Positions 14,841 to 45,771 of a DNA stretch of 64,000 nucleotides are shown piece after piece. Each line of letters opens with the position of its first letter. Within the stretch, counting starts at the first letter, position 1. Under the pieces are notes generated by a model. The model had not been told where the DNA came from and did no database searches. It saw nothing but the letters and a program-made list of their open reading frames with translations. The position numbers were made by a program, and so were the translations under genes. This DNA is from a phage. Location: the sequence record PZ445554.1; one strand, 5' to 3'.

Positions 14841-15766
14841 TTCAATACCTCAATAGCATTACGTAAACCATTTGCTTTTGCATTAAGAGCTTTTAACAAT
14901 TTGGTGTGTTCTTCAATTTGGGCTTCAACTTCAATCAAACGAGCATTGAGATATTCACGTTCTTCGCTCAAGTTATCAACCTTTTCTACTTTAGGTTCTT
15001 TTACAACTGGCTTATACGTATTAGGGTTCTTCAGTTTAATTAGAATGCGTGAACTGTATAACATTGAACCATTATCTTCGGTTTCATCATGCATTTCTAC
15101 TACGTCCATGATTTTTAACATCATGCGAAGTTTATAAGACAACGAACGAATAGTTTTGTTGTGCTTATTAATTTCTCTAGCTGTCATGGTGCCGAGATTA
15201 CGTGAGTAATAATAAGGAACCTGGATATTAATTAATACTGATGAACCACCTGGCTTGTGTGTTACTTCATCAGCAATAACCCAGTCCTTAACATGAACTG
15301 TATTTGTACGGTCATCGCCCATGGTAAACAGTTTGCGAGCATGCTTAAAAAGCATATTCACTTGAGTATTGAATTGACAAGCAAATTTATCAGCAAATTT
15401 AGTTTCAGGAATGGTAGATAACCAATCAGCCAAATGGGTCTTTTTAACATCGTTAATAATAGTAAATTCAACCAAATCGGTTATAGATGTCGCAGATTTA
15501 ATGAAGCTCGGCTTCATAAAGTTTTTAATGTTATCGCGAGCTACAGTAGAAGATAACATACGAGAACGTTTAAACCATTCAAGCAAATTGCCTAACGAAT
15601 GAGAATAAGCGTTTTGAGTATCTTTACAGATATGATTTTCCTGGCCAACATATTGAAGGAAATCACGAAGAATATTATTGATTACTGCTCTGTGCCCGAT
15701 CTGATAATTACGGTGTTTAGTAATAAGACTGTCAAAATAATCAATATAATGTTTACGAGTTTTCAT
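14837..15766 (-). CDS. hypothetical protein, paralogue family member A (C-terminal coiled-coil)
   Basis: 309 aa; shares FxxxRKLF and KxMDVV motifs with three following ORFs; C-terminal heptad-rich tail. Confidence 0.6.
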   Translation of the reverse strand: MKTRKHYIDYFDSLITKHRNYQIGHRAVINNILRDFLQYVGQENHICKDTQNAYSHSLGNLLEWFKRSRMLSSTVARDNIKNFMKPSFIKSATSITDLVEFTIINDVKKTHLADWLSTIPETKFADKFACQFNTQVNMLFKHARKLFTMGDDRTNTVHVKDWVIADEVTHKPGGSSVLINIQVPYYYSRNLGTMTAREINKHNKTIRSLSYKLRMMLKIMDVVEMHDETEDNGSMLYSSRILIKLKNPNTYKPVVKEPKVEKVDNLSEEREYLNARLIEVEAQIEEHTKLLKALNAKANGLRNAIEVLK

Positions 15767-17905: not shown

Positions 17906-18808
17906 TTAAGATTTAAGTAAATCAACAATTTTAATTAACTTTTCACGCTCAGATTTAGCTTTACTACTCAGTCCAGATAGTCTGAAAATTTCATCATCAT
18001 ATTGTTGAATAGAAATATTCAGCTCTTCAATCTGTTTATTAAAATAATCAATTTGTTCAGAATGTTTTTCGTTACTACGAAATGGTACAGGTTTTGTAGG
18101 CAATTTAGTTGAATTGGATTCATCCGGGCGATAAATTAAAATACAACTTGAACCAATCGGACATTTAGCACCAGATGAATATTCTAACGTTCCAGCTTCT
18201 TTTAAAACTTCAAAAGCTAAACAGAGATGATGCCCCATATTGACATAATCTGTAGAGCGAGCTCTGATATAATAATCATCGCCGCGAATACTAAATTTAA
18301 AGCATTTAAGGTCTTCTGTATTATTGGTCTTAAAAATCATTTGTTTATCTAGACCTTTAGCTAATCGAGCGCCTAATGCTAATAATCGTCGTTGATTTTC
18401 CCACAAATCCGCAATCATTTGATCGAATGATAATTTCGGCATTAGTCGACCATAAAGGTCATATCCTTTATTATAATTGCGAAGGATTTCACTCGCATTA
18501 ATACGAGACAACGCTCCAATTTTATTAAGGGCTTTCATGATGCGATTAGATAAACCCATTCCAGACCCGTTTGTTCGTTGTAAATGTTTATCTAATCCAA
18601 ACCCAATATCAACTTTAAATTTATCTAAAATTTCAGCATGAACATCTCTGTCAATAACATTCAAATCCAAAGTTGGGTTAAATCTATGAAAAAATTTATC
18701 TGGCTCTCCACGACGAAGTACAGTCCATTCATTTAATTTTTTATTAACTAAAGATTTAATTACTGCGTTGACATTATTAATTACTACTGACATATTTTCC
18801 TCACTCAA
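17906..18808 (-). CDS. hypothetical protein, probable paralogue family member D
   Basis: 300 aa; similar size and C-terminal coiled-coil; weaker similarity. Confidence 0.55.
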   Translation of the reverse strand: MSEENMSVVINNVNAVIKSLVNKKLNEWTVLRRGEPDKFFHRFNPTLDLNVIDRDVHAEILDKFKVDIGFGLDKHLQRTNGSGMGLSNRIMKALNKIGALSRINASEILRNYNKGYDLYGRLMPKLSFDQMIADLWENQRRLLALGARLAKGLDKQMIFKTNNTEDLKCFKFSIRGDDYYIRARSTDYVNMGHHLCLAFEVLKEAGTLEYSSGAKCPIGSSCILIYRPDESNSTKLPTKPVPFRSNEKHSEQIDYFNKQIEELNISIQQYDDEIFRLSGLSSKAKSEREKLIKIVDLLKS

Positions 18809-19209
18809 TTTTCAATTTTACTAAATACACAGAATATGATGGAAAAGACTATATAAGCACCGCATACAGATTGAACTAATACCATTCCAAAGAACCAAAC
18901 AATATTATCAAACAGTGTCTGTTTTACGTCGAAAGGACGTAAACTTACAGTAATATTATCACCTTTTTCTATTGAAGAATACATCTCTGGTGAAATATAT
19001 TCGCTAAATCTATAACCGTCTTTGAGTTCATATACGGCAATAAACGATAAACTAGACCCCTTTCCTTGAGTTCCTGTAAGGGTATTAACTACAGTAACAT
19101 CATAATCTTTATAATGCATATAATCATTAATTGCGTAATAACCATATGCAACTACTACACATAAACAGCATATCAATAAATTCAATCTTTTAATTATCAA
19201 CTGTTTCAT
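18805..19209 (-). CDS. membrane protein
   Basis: 134 aa; hydrophobic N-terminal (LLICCLCVVVAYGYYAI) and C-terminal (IVWFFGMVLVQSVCGAYIVFSIIFCVF) segments. Confidence 0.55.
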   Translation of the reverse strand: MKQLIIKRLNLLICCLCVVVAYGYYAINDYMHYKDYDVTVVNTLTGTQGKGSSLSFIAVYELKDGYRFSEYISPEMYSSIEKGDNITVSLRPFDVKQTLFDNIVWFFGMVLVQSVCGAYIVFSIIFCVFSKIEN

Positions 19210-24901: not shown

Positions 24902-25288
24902 TTATTCGAGGGAAAGAAGATACTTACTCTGGTAAAACATTCCAGTAATATCATCTATCGTGCTTTGAATGGCTGGAGGCATTTCTTTATAAATGCTGTT
25001 AGATTGGTCTAGTATACGATCAATCATTTTAATTGTGTCGGTAGGAAGTTTACTGGCATTTGGAATTGAAGGTGTGTATTTTCTACCAGAATACCCCAAA
25101 TATTGCTCACCAAATTTATCAATCAAATCTGGCAACTCGGAGAAAATAAAATCGTATGCTTTGTGTCTAGCATAACTTTTAGTTTCAAAATGCGCAGAAT
25201 GAAAATAAGCTTGTGCAGCCATTAATAAACCTAAGTATTCATCTGCCTTTGAAGGTTTTCCACTTTGTGAAAAGTCGCTGAATTTCAT
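24902..25288 (-). CDS. hypothetical protein
   Basis: 128-aa ORF; 4-nt overlap with rI. Confidence 0.55.
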
Positions 25289-27178: not shown

Positions 27179-27396
27179 GTCACCTTTAAGCAGTATTCTT
27201 CTACATGCTGTTTACGACCTTTCTTATCAATAAAGGTATATTCAACGAATGTTCCAATGTAGTCTTTATCTACATCATGTGGACTATTAATTGGACATTT
27301 AGTACGGCAAATGCGTTCCCATTGACGAATAATTACTGCCTTATTCTTTGGGTCATACGGATGTGGATAATGTATATTCATAATAACGGTTCCCAA
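27169..27396 (-). CDS. hypothetical protein
   Basis: 75-aa ORF. Confidence 0.45.
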   Translation of the reverse strand: MGTVIMNIHYPHPYDPKNKAVIIRQWERICRTKCPINSPHDVDKDYIGTFVEYTFIDKKGRKQHVEEYCLKVTWL

Positions 27397-27845
27397 TCAA
27401 CAATCACAATTTCTAATTTAGAGGAATATGTATCTAAAATCCCCTCAATAATATCCCAGTTCCCTTTACCTATGCCTGCACCAATCCTAGGCATATAGAT
27501 TGTAGGTTTAATCAGTTTATTTTCACCAAACTCATTTAATTCTAACATACAATTCATTAAAGCGGAATACTCAAAATTTGGCCCCGGTTGAAATTGAGTA
27601 TAAAGATTGAAGCAGTAAGCTTTATGAGTCCTAAAGTATTTTTCATAGACTGAGTAAGAACCGAGTTTAGTTACATCGCCCCATTCTGTCTGTAATTTAT
27701 CAGCTTCCAAAATTTTAGGGAAAGCTTTGGTTAATTGACCCGCTACGCCTGAACCCATAGTATGAAAACAATTGCATCCATGCGCAATATTTTTACCTTC
27801 AGCGAAAAGGGCGACAATATCGCCCTTGATATATTTTACAATCAT
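27378..27845 (-). CDS. macro domain protein (ADP-ribose binding/processing)
   Basis: 155 aa; GDIV...NIAHGCNC...GSGVAGQL and later PRIGAGIGKG match macro-domain motifs. Confidence 0.65.
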   Translation of the reverse strand: MIVKYIKGDIVALFAEGKNIAHGCNCFHTMGSGVAGQLTKAFPKILEADKLQTEWGDVTKLGSYSVYEKYFRTHKAYCFNLYTQFQPGPNFEYSALMNCMLELNEFGENKLIKPTIYMPRIGAGIGKGNWDIIEGILDTYSSKLEIVIVDWEPLL

Positions 27846-28189
27846 CTAGTACTCAATCCTCGATTATAAGAATCTACCAAACGGTCAACCATTGAATGAC
27901 AAGCGGCTTTATCTTTCTCCTCCGCAACTGAGCATTCTAAGGTATTCCACTTTTTAGCATATCGTTTTAATAATGTATCGTTTTTGTATCTGCTTGATTT
28001 ATCTCTTTCTCCGTCTTTATATGCATATATTAATTTCTGTGCAAATTCAGCTTGGCATGCTTTATTTTTCCCACAATAATCTGCCGCAGTGCGGTTTACA
28101 TATTCTCTAATTTCAGTATATGATGTATCTGCTGATGCAGAAGCAGAAAATGAAATTAATCCTATACATAAAACCAAAATTTTAGTCAT
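27842..28189 (-). CDS. secreted/periplasmic small protein
   Basis: 115 aa; N-terminal signal peptide MTKILVLCIGLISFSASASA; four Cys. Confidence 0.55.
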   Translation of the reverse strand: MTKILVLCIGLISFSASASADTSYTEIREYVNRTAADYCGKNKACQAEFAQKLIYAYKDGERDKSSRYKNDTLLKRYAKKWNTLECSVAEEKDKAACHSMVDRLVDSYNRGLSTR

Positions 28190-28727
28190 TTACTATTTCC
28201 AAAAGTTTATTATTTTTAAGGTAATTAGCCTTTTCTAGGACTTCAGAAGCATATTTAGAACCTGCTTTAACATTCCATCCCGAATTATAAGAGGATATTG
28301 CTTTTCTTATATCGCCCTTATGTATATTTAACCAATAAGAAAGTTCAATGTACGCCCAGGAAGCTGAATTGGATCGTTTATTCAACATTCTTTTTATTTC
28401 AGCATCAGTCATATTATAACCAAGTTCCTTAACTCTCGCTCGCATAGTAGGCAAATAATTTTGGAACATTCCATAAGCGTGATGCTTTGGTTTAGATTTT
28501 AAATTAACTCCGCCAGAGCTTTCTTGCCATAAAATGGCTGCCATTATATGACCTAATCCGCTCTTGTGGATATTTTTATGTGTTTTATATTTTCCATCCT
28601 TAGAAAATTGTTCCCCGAATTGATACGCGTAACGCATGTTATCGAGTTGGACATTACTGAAAGTATGCTCGGAGCTATGTGCCATCATTGAAATGGCCAA
28701 TAGACCAGCGAGTAGTGCTTTTCTCAT
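28182..28727 (-). CDS. secreted lytic transglycosylase-like protein (SLT domain)
   Basis: 181 aa; signal peptide MRKALLAGLLAISMMAHS; ES...GMFQ...YNSG motifs resembling family-1 lytic transglycosylases. Confidence 0.6.
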   Translation of the reverse strand: MRKALLAGLLAISMMAHSSEHTFSNVQLDNMRYAYQFGEQFSKDGKYKTHKNIHKSGLGHIMAAILWQESSGGVNLKSKPKHHAYGMFQNYLPTMRARVKELGYNMTDAEIKRMLNKRSNSASWAYIELSYWLNIHKGDIRKAISSYNSGWNVKAGSKYASEVLEKANYLKNNKLLEIVND

Positions 28728-28734
28728 GCTTACC

Positions 28735-29196
28735 TCATTGAGTTTTAATTACTGCTTTAGAAGCCTTTCCTGGTAAACGACGACTGTTAATAATTGCCAT
28801 CCTACATTGAAGTGACGGGTCTTTGAACTTCTCGTTAGGTTTACAAACTGTAAATCCAAGCCAAAGATTTCCATCTGTGATTTCTAAACGTCCAGGACGA
28901 TATTCAACCCCATCAATAAAATCCTCGTCAATGTCAGGACGCGGAGGCATACTCAGGAATTCATTAACTTCTAAAACATGGTCTTTTATTTTATGGAATA
29001 ATTCAAAAACATATGTCTCATCAATCTCCCGCTGAATTGCGCGATCAAGAAGATGCTGAGAATATTTTAGATGAAACGATGAGACCCTTGCTGCTTTTGA
29101 TGCCTCACGAATCTCATTGTTAATTTGACGAAACTCCGACTCAAAGTGACGACGAAGCTTATTTCGACGGATAAAAACTTCTGTATTGATAGTCAT
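28735..29196 (-). CDS. regB: site-specific endoribonuclease RegB
   Basis: 153 aa; MTINTEVFIRRNKLRRHFESEFRQINNEIRE... recognised as T4 RegB. Confidence 0.9.
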   Translation of the reverse strand: MTINTEVFIRRNKLRRHFESEFRQINNEIREASKAARVSSFHLKYSQHLLDRAIQREIDETYVFELFHKIKDHVLEVNEFLSMPPRPDIDEDFIDGVEYRPGRLEITDGNLWLGFTVCKPNEKFKDPSLQCRMAIINSRRLPGKASKAVIKTQ

Positions 29197-29223
29197 GTTG
29201 TTCTCCTCTTAACTGATAGAAAA

Positions 29224-29253
29224 ATTATACCACAGTCAAGAGGAAAAGTAAAC
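29224..29253 (-). promoter_or_regulatory. T4-type early promoter upstream of regB
   Basis: GTTTAC-N18-TATAAT with TGG extension; GAGGAGAA RBS follows. Confidence 0.5.
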
Positions 29254-29255
29254 AG

Positions 29256-29576
29256 TTATTCTTTAAATCTAATCAATTTATTCATAGACTTTGAAACTTC
29301 TGCACGAACCTCATGTAGATTTTTGAGCTGTTCAAGACGCTGCGTATAGTAAGCAATTTCATCTTCTTCGAGACAGTCCTGCGAATCTTCTTTAAGATAA
29401 CGTGCATAGTCCTGAAAAGCGTTACGGATTACTTCCTGGAAGTCATCAAGACTTTGAATTTTCTTAGGAGCAGCAGATACACGACGAGGGGCAGTATAAT
29501 ACTCATAACCAAACCCTGCGCTTAATTGAGCCATTAGTATTTTTCCTCTGGTTGGAACACTGCACGACAAGCCCAC
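29256..29576 (-). CDS. hypothetical protein
   Basis: 106-aa ORF (likely start MAQLSAGF). Confidence 0.5.
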
Positions 29577-29836
29577 ATACTGGCTTCTTTGAGTTTCGTT
29601 TTAGCAATAGTTAACTGATCGAGGCTTTCGGCGTAATTCTTCGCGAGTTCATCATCTTCACAGCTATCAAATGCTTCCCAAAATTCATCGTATAAAGCAT
29701 CAAAGATAAGTCCTAAACGAACTTCAGCGTCTTTAATAGCATTTACTTTACCGATTTTTTCGTCGGTATGTGGCTTATAACCTTTAATATCTTCAATCAT
29801 ATTTGACTTCCTCACCAGTACATAAATCGTATTCAA
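29534..29836 (-). CDS. hypothetical small helical protein
   Basis: 100-aa ORF (likely start MIEDIKGY); by position could correspond to T4 vs.4, not verifiable here. Confidence 0.5.
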
Positions 29837-30014
29837 CTAAACGAATAGGTTCATGAATGCCATATCCCTGAACAGAAATTTCTGTAGTAGGATAAATTCC
29901 ATTAATATCACCCATGTTCCATGCTTCGTTAAATTGCTGTTCGCCTGAATTACTAAACCATTCAGCGAAAGCATTTAGCACATCTTCAGAACCTTCAATA
30001 ATTATCTTTGCCAT
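29793..30014 (-). CDS. hypothetical protein
   Basis: 73-aa acidic ORF. Confidence 0.5.
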   Translation of the reverse strand: MAKIIIEGSEDVLNAFAEWFSNSGEQQFNEAWNMGDINGIYPTTEISVQGYGIHEPIRLVEYDLCTGEEVKYD

Positions 30015-30376
30015 TACAAACTCTCGGTAAAGGTACGAGCGATAACATCGCGCTGCTGTTCCGGAGTCAGAGAGTTAAAGCGAACTGCATAACCGGATAC
30101 ACGGATGGTCAGCTGCGGATATTTTTCCGGATGCTTAACTGCATCTTCCAGAGTTTCGCGACGCAGAACGTTAACGTTCAGGTGTTGACCACCTTCAATT
30201 TTAACTGTAGGCTGTTGCTCAATTTCAATTTCACGGGCATGCAAACCGTAGAAAATTTCTGGGTCTACAAAAGAGTCCTCTTTAAAGGTTTTGGAGACAA
30301 TAATTCGTGCTTGAATACCATCTTCAAAATAAATAGTACCTTTATGTGTGCCTTCAAGAATTTGATATGCTTTCAT
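30014..30376 (-). CDS. autonomous glycyl radical cofactor (GrcA/YfiD-like)
   Basis: 120 aa; C-terminal [59 protein letters not shown] is the PFL/GrcA glycyl-radical domain (RVSGY). Confidence 0.85.
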
Positions 30377-32348: not shown

Positions 32349-32879
<531 letters not shown>

Positions 32880-39164: not shown

Positions 39165-39350
39165 TTATTCACCTTTAGAAATTTTATCCATAACAATAGC
39201 AATTAAACCAATTAAAAATGCTACTACAAGTGAAAACACATTTTCTGCTGTAGTCAATAATCCACATATAAATCCAACAAACATTGAAAAACTAAAAGCG
39301 GAAGCAGAAATTGCAATAGCAACATTTCGAATTAATTCACAACGTTTCAT
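39165..39350 (-). CDS. small membrane protein
   Basis: 61 aa; two hydrophobic helices. Confidence 0.5.
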   Translation of the reverse strand: MKRCELIRNVAIAISASAFSFSMFVGFICGLLTTAENVFSLVVAFLIGLIAIVMDKISKGE

Positions 39351-44060: not shown

Positions 44061-45771
44061 TAACCTTAATTGGTTTGTTGGTGTTGTTGAAGATAGAATG
44101 GACCCATTAAAATTAGGTCGTGTTCGTGTTCGTGTGGTTGGTCTGCATCCACCTCAAAGAGCACAAGGTGATGTAATGGGTATTCCAACTGAAAAATTAC
44201 CATGGATGTCAGTTATTCAACCTATAACTTCTGCAGCAATGTCTGGAATTGGAGGTTCCGTTACTGGACCGGTAGAAGGAACTAGAGTTTATGGTCATTT
44301 TTTAGACAAATGGAAAACTAACGGAATTGTCCTTGGCACGTATGGTGGAATAGTTCGCGAAAAACCGAATAGACTTGAAGGATTTTCTGACCCAACTGGT
44401 CAATATCCTAGACGTTTAGGAAATGATACTAACGTATTAAACCAAGGCGGAGAAGTAGGATATGATTCGTCTTCTAACATTATCCAAGATAGTAACTTAG
44501 ACACCGCAATAAATCCCGATGATAGACCGCTATCAGAAATTCCAACTGATGATAATCCAAATATGTCAATGGCTGAAATGCTTCGCCGTGATGAAGGATT
44601 AAGACTAAAAGTTTATTGGGATACAGAAGGATATCCAACAATTGGTATTGGTCATCTTATCATGAAGCAGCCAGTTCGTGATATGGCTCAAATTAATAAA
44701 GTTTTATCAAAACAAGTTGGTCGTGAAATTACTGGAAACCCAGGTTCTATTACAATGGAAGAAGCGACGACTTTATTTGAACGTGATTTGGCTGATATGC
44801 AACGGGACATTAAATCACATTCTAAAGTAGGACCAGTCTGGCAAGCTGTCAACCGTTCTCGTCAAATGGCGTTAGAAAATATGGCATTTCAAATGGGTGT
44901 TGGCGGTGTAGCTAAATTTAACACAATGTTAACTGCTATGTTAGCCGGAGATTGGGAAAAAGCATATAAAGCCGGTCGTGATTCATTGTGGTATCAACAA
45001 ACAAAAGGCCGTGCATCCCGTGTTACCATGATTATTCTTACGGGGAATTTGGAATCATATGGTGTTGAAGTGAAAACCCCGGCTAGGTCTCTATCAGCAA
45101 TGGCTGCTACTGTAGCTAAATCTTCTGACCCTGCTGACCCTCCTATTCCAAATGACTCGAGAATTTTATTCAAAGAACCAGTTTCTTCATATAAAGGCGA
45201 ATATCCTTATGTGCATACAATGGAAACTGAAAGCGGACATATTCAGGAATTTGATGATACTCCTGGGCAAGAACGATACAGATTAGTTCATCCGACTGGA
45301 ACTTATGAAGAAGTATCACCGTCAGGAAGAAGAACAAGAAAAACTGTCGATAATTTGTATGATATAACCAACGCTGATGGTAATTTTTTGGTAGCCGGTG
45401 ATAAAAAGACTAACGTCGGTGGATCAGAAATTTATTACAACATGGATAATCGTTTACATCAAATCGATGGAAGCAATACAATATTTGTACGTGGCGATGA
45501 AACTAAGACAGTTGAAGGTAATGGAACTATCCTAGTTAAAGGTAATGTTACTATTGTAGTTGAAGGTAATGCTGACATCACAGTTAAAGGAGATGCTACC
45601 ACTTTAGTTGAAGGTAATCAAACTAATACAGTAAATGGAAATCTTTCTTGGAAAGTTGCTGGGACAGTTGATTGGGACGTTGGTGGTGATTGGACAGAAA
45701 AAATGGCATCTATGAGTTCTATTTCATCCGGTCAATACACAATTGATGGATCGAGGATTGACATTGGCTAA
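44044..45771 (+). CDS. 5: baseplate hub/cell-puncturing protein gp5 with lysozyme domain
   Basis: 575 aa; internal T4-lysozyme-like segment MAEMLRRDEGLRLKVYWDTEGYPTIGIGHLI; C-terminal VxGxxxxxV beta-helix repeats. Confidence 0.93.
   Translation: MEMISNNLNWFVGVVEDRMDPLKLGRVRVRVVGLHPPQRAQGDVMGIPTEKLPWMSVIQPITSAAMSGIGGSVTGPVEGTRVYGHFLDKWKTNGIVLGTYGGIVREKPNRLEGFSDPTGQYPRRLGNDTNVLNQGGEVGYDSSSNIIQDSNLDTAINPDDRPLSEIPTDDNPNMSMAEMLRRDEGLRLKVYWDTEGYPTIGIGHLIMKQPVRDMAQINKVLSKQVGREITGNPGSITMEEATTLFERDLADMQRDIKSHSKVGPVWQAVNRSRQMALENMAFQMGVGGVAKFNTMLTAMLAGDWEKAYKAGRDSLWYQQTKGRASRVTMIILTGNLESYGVEVKTPARSLSAMAATVAKSSDPADPPIPNDSRILFKEPVSSYKGEYPYVHTMETESGHIQEFDDTPGQERYRLVHPTGTYEEVSPSGRRTRKTVDNLYDITNADGNFLVAGDKKTNVGGSEIYYNMDNRLHQIDGSNTIFVRGDETKTVEGNGTILVKGNVTIVVEGNADITVKGDATTLVEGNQTNTVNGNLSWKVAGTVDWDVGGDWTEKMASMSSISSGQYTIDGSRIDIG

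Follow-up and report, generated by a model that had tools for sequence, protein, structure and literature searches.

The 64,000-nt stretch of the phage record PZ445554.1 that was analysed here (the window) carries two overlapping minus-strand genes, vs.1 (28182..28727, 181 amino acids) and vs (27842..28189, 115 amino acids), whose products appear to form an early, exported pair. The reading we favour, and which we hold to be probable, is that both proteins leave the cytoplasm, that Vs.1 is a lytic transglycosylase, and that the two share a role at the host envelope which is separate from final lysis. The original prediction, made from the sequence alone, had placed two secreted proteins between 27842 and 28727, one of them similar to lytic transglycosylases, and this interval is matched exactly by two minus-strand ATG open reading frames (ORFs) that overlap by 8 nt. 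Left out of that prediction were the T4 names of the genes, the published similarity of vs.1 to the SLT family, and the functional annotation of Vs, which clashes with its export signal. Otherwise, its picture of two exported proteins, one of them like a lytic transglycosylase and separate from e and gp5, agreed with every computational test made. The annotation of Vs is the only real surprise at the locus: judged by its sequence, Vs has every hallmark of a protein exported to the periplasm despite being annotated with a cytoplasmic function.

The identity of both genes is clear. A 2-kb search query (window positions 27300-29300) has a DNA identity of 99.8% with Escherichia phage TadeuszReichstein and of 98.7% with T4. 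The 181-residue protein is 100% identical to T4 ORF 61.4 (Vs.1) and the 115-residue protein is 100% identical to T4 ORF 60.9 (Vs), with the original 1986 record X04567 as the T4 reference, and the annotated gene order, regB-vs.1-vs-tk.4, is that of T4. Such a level of DNA identity, together with the two identical proteins, makes the window a Tequatrovirus, and the two ORFs are the named genes vs.1 and vs in a close relative of T4. With respect to Vs.1 and its neighbours, no difference from T4 was found.

Vs.1 is predicted to be the precursor of an exported SLT-domain (GH23, family-1-like) lytic transglycosylase. Its sole Pfam match, SLT (PF01464), covers residues 61-154 (28266..28547, minus strand) and scores 25.1 bits (E = 1.4e-5), where the gathering cut-off is 21.3; several homologues of Vs.1 bear a precomputed match to the same model. 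The protein belongs to phrog_600 (“unknown function”), with weaker PHROG matches to lytic tail proteins, endolysin domains and internal-virion lysins; NCBIfam holds no model for Vs.1 or Vs. Four motifs can be read in the sequence: E69-S70 (motif I), G86-M-F-Q89 (II), S146-Y-N-S-G150 (III) and Y159 (IV). Among 26 homologues, down to 41% identity, E69, G86, F88, Q89, Y147, N148 and G150 are invariant. A wider alignment that adds Aeromonas and Acinetobacter T4-like phages, Salmonella phage Det7 (Ackermannviridae) and Escherichia phage finno (Felixounavirus) extends down to 30% identity and still leaves E69, G86, Q89, N90, Y147, N148, G150 and Y159 unchanged. E69 is invariant in both Vs.1 alignments (A2 and A4). 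Judged from these alignments, the invariant residues are those of the four consensus motifs of family-1 lytic transglycosylases, and they are kept across three phage families.

Structural comparison points the same way. In hhalign comparisons, E69-S70 and GMFQ of Vs.1 fall on the E-S and GLMQ of Escherichia coli Slt70 and MltE, with E69 aligned to E505 of Slt70 (precursor numbering) and to the glutamate of the MltE E-S motif; the pairwise scores are not significant on their own. The AlphaFold2 model of Vs.1 has a predicted local distance difference test score (pLDDT) of 88.4, with residues 1-20 at 52-56 and the domain above 90. In this model E69 (codon 28521..28523, minus strand), the predicted catalytic acid, terminates helix 59-70, so that the E-S motif lies at the C-terminal end of the helix. 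In a Foldseek search of the PDB the model was matched best by MltD, a GH23 chitinase, goose-type lysozyme, Slt and LtgA, with probabilities of 0.96-1.0 and template modelling (TM) scores of about 0.45-0.54, and phi6 P5 and T7 gp16 were also among the best matches; the modelled fold is thus of the goose-lysozyme/SLT type. The ES, GMFQ and YNSG motifs, from which the original prediction had proposed a family-1 lytic transglycosylase, are therefore present in a protein with an above-threshold SLT match and the corresponding structural matches.

Some of these results weigh against an enzymatic reading of Vs.1. The SLT score is just modestly over its threshold, the Foldseek E-value is 7e-3 at best, and profile searches against PDB sequences gave no significant match, the best for the Vs.1 profile being a g-type lysozyme at E = 0.42. 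Searches of PDB sequences with the single proteins Vs.1 and Vs returned a centrin and an antibody chain and were unusable. The marginal Pfam score, together with literature searches that returned no experimental function and no reported activity for Vs.1, would suit a catalytically dead SLT fold that just binds peptidoglycan or another glycan. We regard this as very improbable, since the catalytic glutamate and all family-1 motif residues are invariant over the three phage families, even at 30% identity, which is the signature of a maintained active site.

The original prediction had also set the 181-residue protein apart from the other murein enzymes of the phage, and rightly so: lysozyme e (32349-32843, minus strand) and the gp5 lysozyme domain (about 44563-45060, plus strand) are encoded by separate genes in the window, and BLAST found no significant similarity of Vs.1 to either. 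With E. coli Slt70, MltE/EmtA and MltD, Vs.1 shares the SLT Pfam domain, the E-S, G-[LM]-[MF]-Q and [AS]-Y-N-x-G motifs, the conserved tyrosine, the catalytic glutamate at a helix end, a structural match and a periplasmic location, the last being predicted for Vs.1. It differs from them in being a single small domain, about 15% identical, that lacks any superhelical, LysM or lipid-anchor module. T7 gp16, phi6 P5 and the tail lysins have the same fold (9jyy_I, 6yt5_G, 4dq5). These, however, are structural proteins made late that act from the outside at entry, whereas Vs.1 is a standalone, non-essential protein with a predicted signal peptide, made from early RNA as a middle protein. A signal peptide followed by one SLT domain, in 150-200 amino acids, is also the architecture of P19 of plasmid R1, IpgF, IagB and VirB1, whose supposed task is to make local openings in the murein and not to lyse the cell. 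The likeness of Vs.1 to this group is one of architecture and a shared Pfam domain: tblastn against 72,556 plasmids found no Vs.1 relative, and no trans-envelope machine is encoded beside vs.1.

Relatives of Vs.1 are widespread in phages. By tblastn the protein is found in 2046 phage records, from T4-like phages, Ackermannviridae and Felixounavirus, which are virulent myoviruses, and its clade consists of phage-only proteins of 170-205 amino acids. The precursor has a mass of 20.7 kDa; the predicted mature form has a mass of 18.8 kDa, an isoelectric point of 9.65 and no cysteine. The homologues in Det7 (gp70, L007:1953-2570) and finno (finno_46, L008:2001-2549) each carry a cysteine right behind the signal peptide and another close to the C-terminus, and these could form a disulfide between the two ends that would be without counterpart in the cysteine-free T4 protein. 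The SLT similarity of vs.1 was published between 2003 and 2006; it was described for T4 and five T4-like phages by Nolan et al. (2006, PMC1524935), who cite the 2003 T4 genome review and corroborate an earlier report on T4 (their ref. 15). In GenBank and UniRef, several records of the family already read “transglycosylase SLT domain-containing protein”. The gene pair and its SLT annotation are therefore part of the T4 literature and databases, and do not amount to a new kind of system. Other labels in the family are less fortunate. Many homologues are called “RegB site-specific RNA endonuclease” or “endoribonuclease”, for instance in Salmonella phage Maynard, Citrobacter phage CF1, Yersinia phage phiR1-RT and Escherichia phages vB_EcoM_3HA11 and vB_EcoM-ZQ1, which looks like an annotation slip propagated from the adjoining gene, and one Klebsiella phage record calls its homologue a “C-type lysozyme/alpha-lactalbumin family protein”.

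The signal peptides that the original prediction had seen on both ORFs were recovered by a rule-based test and are conserved as a pattern in homologues. Vs.1 starts with MRK, the core ALLAGLLAISMMA and AHS/S (the slash marks the predicted cut), and Vs with MTK, the core ILVLCIGLISF and SASASA/D. Both N-termini thus have 1-2 basic residues, a hydrophobic core of 11-13 residues, a small -3/-1 site and an acidic early mature region. The predicted signal peptide of Vs.1 comprises residues 1-18 (MRKALLAGLLAISMMAHS, cut before S; 28674..28727, minus strand) and that of Vs residues 1-20 (MTKILVLCIGLISFSASASA, cut before D; 28130..28189, minus strand). To pass the test, a sequence needs a basic n-region, then 10 or more uncharged residues in a row that include a strongly hydrophobic core, and finally either a -3/-1 site or a lipobox; both proteins also agree with the fuller description of a Sec (type I) signal peptide, in which the h-region has 7-15 residues and the early mature part is free of positive charge. 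The test is passed by 6 of the 134 ATG ORFs of at least 60 amino acids in the window, two of which are vs.1 and vs, and by 3 of the 25 annotated T4 genes in the stretch from rI to ipIII, namely vs, vs.1 and rI, whose product is an exported antiholin. Of the cytoplasmic E. coli proteins used as controls none passed, and the lipoprotein EmtA was detected; the test is conservative, missing Slt70 and TreA with their long n-regions.

The export signals are maintained even as their sequences change. The Sec pattern is kept in 74/76 full-length homologues of Vs.1 and in all 15 of Vs. Mean pairwise column identity is 0.31 in the signal segment against 0.57 in the mature part of Vs.1 (alignment A2), and 0.38 against 0.59 in Vs (alignment A1), and despite this drift the hydropathy of the segment stays near +2.3. 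AlphaFold leaves the N-terminal segments of Vs.1 and Vs unpacked against the folds. The uncharged runs have a median length of 16-17 residues and end in small-residue sites, which favours cleaved Sec signals over membrane anchors or signal-anchor-release (SAR) domains. In a distant Vs homologue (P0096) the type-I signal is replaced, at the same place, by the lipoprotein box LSGC. Export of both Vs.1 and Vs through Sec-type signals is thus a supported prediction from sequence. Apart from these, two further minus-strand ORFs pass the crude signal test, at 18805-19209 (134 amino acids, MKQLIIKRLNLLICCLCVVVA...) and 39165-39350 (61 amino acids), as do two short plus-strand ORFs, 15411-15602 and 24993-25175, which may be spurious.

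Early expression, the remaining element of the original prediction, agrees both with the published T4 data and with the promoter in front of regB. A strong, early-type sigma-70 promoter (TTTACT-17-TATAAT with TG; 29224..29252, minus strand) lies upstream of regB and, with 10/12 matches and an extended -10 TG, is the best promoter-like site in 27300-29700. It likely drives a regB-vs.1-vs-tk.4 transcript, and in this way would serve vs.1 and vs. In a time-course omics study of T4, both genes are classed as “early RNA, middle protein”, which means that both proteins are detected in infected cells. A screen of Mosigvirus early proteins for toxicity does not mention vs.1, and in full-text searches the 2025 HIDEN-SEQ preprint was the only modern work found to address what Vs or Vs.1 does.

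That preprint reports vs and vs.1 to be non-essential, with transposon insertions in 30/32 and 46/52 TA sites, respectively. Its competition between LB and M9 media (Extended Data Table 6, sheet S8; mean insertion counts) sets the two genes apart from those around them. For vs the counts are 26.6 in LB and 5.0 in M9 (log2 fold change -2.19; p 0, adjusted 0), and for vs.1 they are 22.6 and 11.9 (-0.87; p 0.0055, adjusted 0.155), as compared with 289.6 and 275.0 for tk.4 (-0.07, not significant), 178.6 and 403.0 for regB (+1.17; p 0.049, adjusted 0.80) and 652.1 and 626.2 for vs.3 (-0.06, not significant). The roughly ten-fold shortfall of vs and vs.1 relative to vs.3 recurs in two other HIDEN-SEQ comparisons, and a clean vs knockout makes poor plaques on M9 glucose medium. 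The two genes therefore share a phenotype that is absent from their neighbours, and this could reflect either a common pathway or polarity of vs.1 insertions on vs. The second possibility counts against a joint role, as the low counts in vs.1 could then be a polar effect on vs. In the same data, counts in M9 are higher than in LB for dda (+1.71), nrdA, nrdB and td, and lower for a-gt (-1.04) and b-gt (-0.64).

The original prediction had remarked that an early periplasmic murein enzyme would be unexpected for a lytic function, and the transposon data speak against such a function. Insertion counts for e are strongly reduced (2.5 and 3.9), and in t no insertion was recovered; with vs.1 dispensable, Vs.1 and Vs are probably not lysis machinery. 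One might still imagine Vs.1 as an auxiliary endolysin of the SAR type, tethered inactive to the inner membrane by an uncleaved signal-anchor-release segment and set free on depolarisation by the holin. T4 Vs.1 does have a hydrophobic core rich in Ala, Gly and Ser, some records call the Felixounavirus homologues “putative lysin”, and the nearby T4 protein rI uses a SAR domain itself. Even so, we judge SAR-endolysin membership quite unlikely. The uncharged N-terminal run of the homologues has a median of 16 residues (range 8-24), which is short for a membrane span, and ends in a good -3/-1 cleavage site in 74/76 of them; their cores are rich in Leu, Ile and Phe; fifty residues separate the run from the catalytic glutamate; the RNA is early and not late; and vs.1 is non-essential, whereas e is depleted and t is free of insertions.

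The second protein of the pair is the more puzzling one. Vs is 100% identical to the T4 protein known as tau factor (PF26829, ValRS_modifier) and is annotated as “valyl-tRNA synthetase modifier”, a cytoplasmic role, while its sequence features suggest export. It matches phrog_1256 (E = 1.7e-39) and its homologues carry Pfam PF26829, both families being named for this modifier function. The family is tiny, with 13 clusters in 5.8 billion proteins, all from T4-like phages. An exhaustive profile search of 1.84 billion representatives gave 8 proteins only, again all T4-like, and no bacterial relative, so there is no source from which a function could be borrowed; by tblastn, Vs occurs in 796 phage records. 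In the AlphaFold2 model, residues 1-20 have a pLDDT below 50 and are followed by helices 22-39, 43-63, 70-86 and 91-112 at pLDDT above 90. With three very distant members included, only ten residues are invariant throughout the family, and four of these ten are the cysteines C39, C45, C86 and C97. In the model C39 and C45 sit at the turn between helices 1 and 2, and C86 and C97 at that between helices 3 and 4, as might be expected of pairs that DsbA would join as disulfides. Vs is accordingly named here as a predicted exported, cysteine-stapled four-helix protein. No known fold relative emerged from structural comparison, and neither fold nor profile resembles the known periplasmic inhibitors of lysozymes and transglycosylases (Spackle, Ivy, MliC/PliC, LprI).

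These features would mark Vs as an exported, disulfide-stabilised protein, in conflict with its annotated cytoplasmic function. Several points can be held against this view. Classical biochemistry and genetics stand behind the annotation of Vs as a binder of the cytoplasmic valyl-tRNA synthetase, with which an exclusively periplasmic Vs is hard to reconcile, and the four cysteines could bind metal instead of forming disulfides. It is possible, if somewhat doubtful, that Vs is what the textbooks say: a cytoplasmic binder of the synthetase whose N-terminus is used for export inefficiently or not at all, that its place beside vs.1 is mere synteny, and that Vs.1 is the only periplasmic protein of the two. 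Every database names the family in this sense, gene overlap is common in T4, the poor growth without vs on minimal medium, where the cell has to make its own amino acids, would suit a protein concerned with aminoacylation, and vs is depleted more strongly in M9 than vs.1. Mutations in vs reportedly alter plating on valS(ts) relA hosts, suggesting an interaction in vivo.

Yet a canonical Sec signal is kept in each of the 15 homologues while the sequence drifts, one homologue has a lipoprotein box there instead, residues 1-20 are unpacked in the model, and the four invariant cysteines lie at the hairpin turns. Tau factor binds the synthetase spontaneously in extracts, and its reported size of about 10 kDa is nearer that calculated for cleaved Vs (11.05 kDa) than for the precursor (13.06 kDa). 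A leaderless cytoplasmic form of Vs was considered and discarded: past the signal peptide there is no canonical in-frame start (ATG, GTG or TTG), and codon 27 is only an ATT. Full-length Vs with an N-terminal His tag was insoluble in the E. coli cytoplasm in a published survey of expression. Finally, our searches found no primary evidence by which ORF 60.9, unnamed in X04567, could be linked to the vs mutations or to the tau peptide.

The genes of Vs.1 and Vs are closely linked. The stop of vs.1 and the start of vs overlap by 8 nt (AATGACTAA; 28182..28189, minus strand), a geometry typical of translational coupling. A Vs-profile search of IMG/VR gave 27 loci in which the order regB-vs.1-vs-tk.4 is kept; when Acinetobacter phage Mokit and two metagenomic contigs are added, vs has a vs.1 homologue as its immediate upstream neighbour in 30/30 loci, and in all 30 the vs start falls between -8 and +3 nt from the vs.1 stop. 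Such overlap suggests that vs is probably translated by coupled ribosomes. The pair persists in Acinetobacter-type T4-like phages that lack the flanking regB and tk.4. In Mokit, where Vs is 21% identical to T4 Vs, a SegB-like homing endonuclease precedes the pair, and two more proteins with hydrophobic N-termini, then the antiholin gene rI, follow it. Vs without Vs.1 was not seen among the examined loci, and Vs.1 without a detectable Vs occurs in Aeromonas phage 31, Det7 and finno; this pattern is suggestive of, and compatible with, Vs being an accessory of Vs.1. It must be said that tight packing and conserved order are general in T4-like genomes (vs and tk.4 overlap as well), so that adjacency of vs.1 and vs is weak evidence of a partnership.

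The surroundings of the pair in Acinetobacter-type phages offer some further observations. A third protein of 135-141 amino acids, with two cysteines and a signal-peptide-like N-terminus (...A/WE...), is encoded right after vs with overlapping start and stop codons (L006:2824-3249 in Mokit, L036:4324-4743 and L037:778-1185). The three copies are mutually homologous (E from 1e-13 to 1e-35) and have no counterpart in the present window; in these lineages there is, apparently, a three-gene block of proteins that would all be exported. In Mokit, a 99-residue protein with a hydrophobic N-terminus (L006:3249-3847) and rI are found within 1 kb past the vs.1-vs block, which puts the pair among envelope and lysis-control genes.

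We put forward, tentatively, that Vs is a Sec-exported, disulfide-stapled periplasmic partner of Vs.1, be it regulator, inhibitor or cofactor, and not, or not only, a cytoplasmic protein that modifies valyl-tRNA synthetase. T4 Spackle (Sp), a small helical periplasmic protein with a signal peptide, inhibits the gp5 lysozyme. Vs resembles it as a small helical protein with a predicted signal peptide, and might by analogy be its functional counterpart. More specifically, Vs could be a dedicated periplasmic inhibitor or regulator of Vs.1, akin to an immunity protein, which restrains the early-made transglycosylase until late infection; with vs alone missing, Vs.1 would go unchecked and harm the infected cell. 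Among the examined loci Vs occurs only with Vs.1, directly downstream and coupled, whereas Vs.1 also occurs without Vs. Vs also evolves faster than Vs.1 at equal phylogenetic distance (e.g. 46% versus 67% identity), and insertions in vs are depleted more in M9 (-2.19) than those in vs.1 (-0.87). We nevertheless think an inhibitor unlikely. Insertions in vs.1 are about ten-fold under-represented in LB, which is unexpected if losing the enzyme, and the inhibitor along with it by polarity, were harmless, and none of the known inhibitors of lysozymes or transglycosylases, Spackle included, is similar to Vs in fold.

Returning to an exported pair that acts on the envelope, the course of events would be as follows. 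The Vs.1 precursor would be exported by the Sec pathway and cut after Ser18, giving a single-domain, GH23 family-1-like enzyme with Glu69 as its single catalytic acid. This enzyme would cut MurNAc-beta-1,4-GlcNAc bonds (between N-acetylmuramic acid and N-acetylglucosamine) in the host sacculus, leaving 1,6-anhydro-MurNAc ends. Vs would be exported likewise and cut after Ala20, its four helices held by the cysteine pairs as disulfides. The two proteins would then share one compartment and probably one process, in which the infected cell has its murein or envelope remodelled in a controlled way; final lysis is the work of the holin t with lysozyme e.

If Vs were a periplasmic partner of Vs.1, as tentatively put forward above, the vs.1-vs module would serve phages as a conserved means of resetting the host's cell-wall state soon after infection begins, which would explain both the fitness cost of disrupting either gene and the stronger need for vs in minimal medium. 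The complex of tau with valyl-tRNA synthetase might then form on the mixing of periplasm and cytoplasm at cell breakage, or the vs phenotype may have been given to the wrong ORF. In any case, a small predicted exported transglycosylase, transcribed early, is present in more than 2000 records of virulent myoviruses and is dispensable for lysis, and recent transposon data point to a contribution of vs.1 to fitness. The sequence evidence for export of Vs contradicts a 50-year-old functional label that has been copied into every T4-like genome. Should that label be wrong or incomplete, the classic story of host translation modification would have to be revised, and some other cause found for the minimal-medium phenotype of vs described in 2025.

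The neighbouring genes are as expected from T4. Upstream, regB (28735..29196, minus strand) encodes the site-specific endoribonuclease (T4 annotation; Pfam REGB_T4, E = 2.8e-68). Its stop codon (TGA, 28735-28737) is overlapped by the Shine-Dalgarno sequence GAGG of vs.1 (28733..28736, minus strand), at the position equivalent to the potential ribosome-binding site that X04567 marks for ORF 61.4. Downstream, tk.4 (27378..27845, minus strand), a macro-domain gene by Pfam, overlaps vs by 4 nt; its product has been named AdfM, anti-DarTG2 factor, in the HIDEN-SEQ preprint. A terminator-like hairpin (AAGGGCGACAATATCGCCCTT, then a T-rich run) lies at 27807-27827 on the plus strand, antisense within the 5' end of tk.4; three such sites were found where 1.6 are expected by chance. 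Somewhat further away, vs.6 (30014-30376, minus strand) encodes a 120-residue protein with a C-terminal glycyl-radical motif (...RVSGYAV...), like the small “spare part” glycyl-radical proteins, and its Gly_radical Pfam match has been reported previously (PMC1524935).

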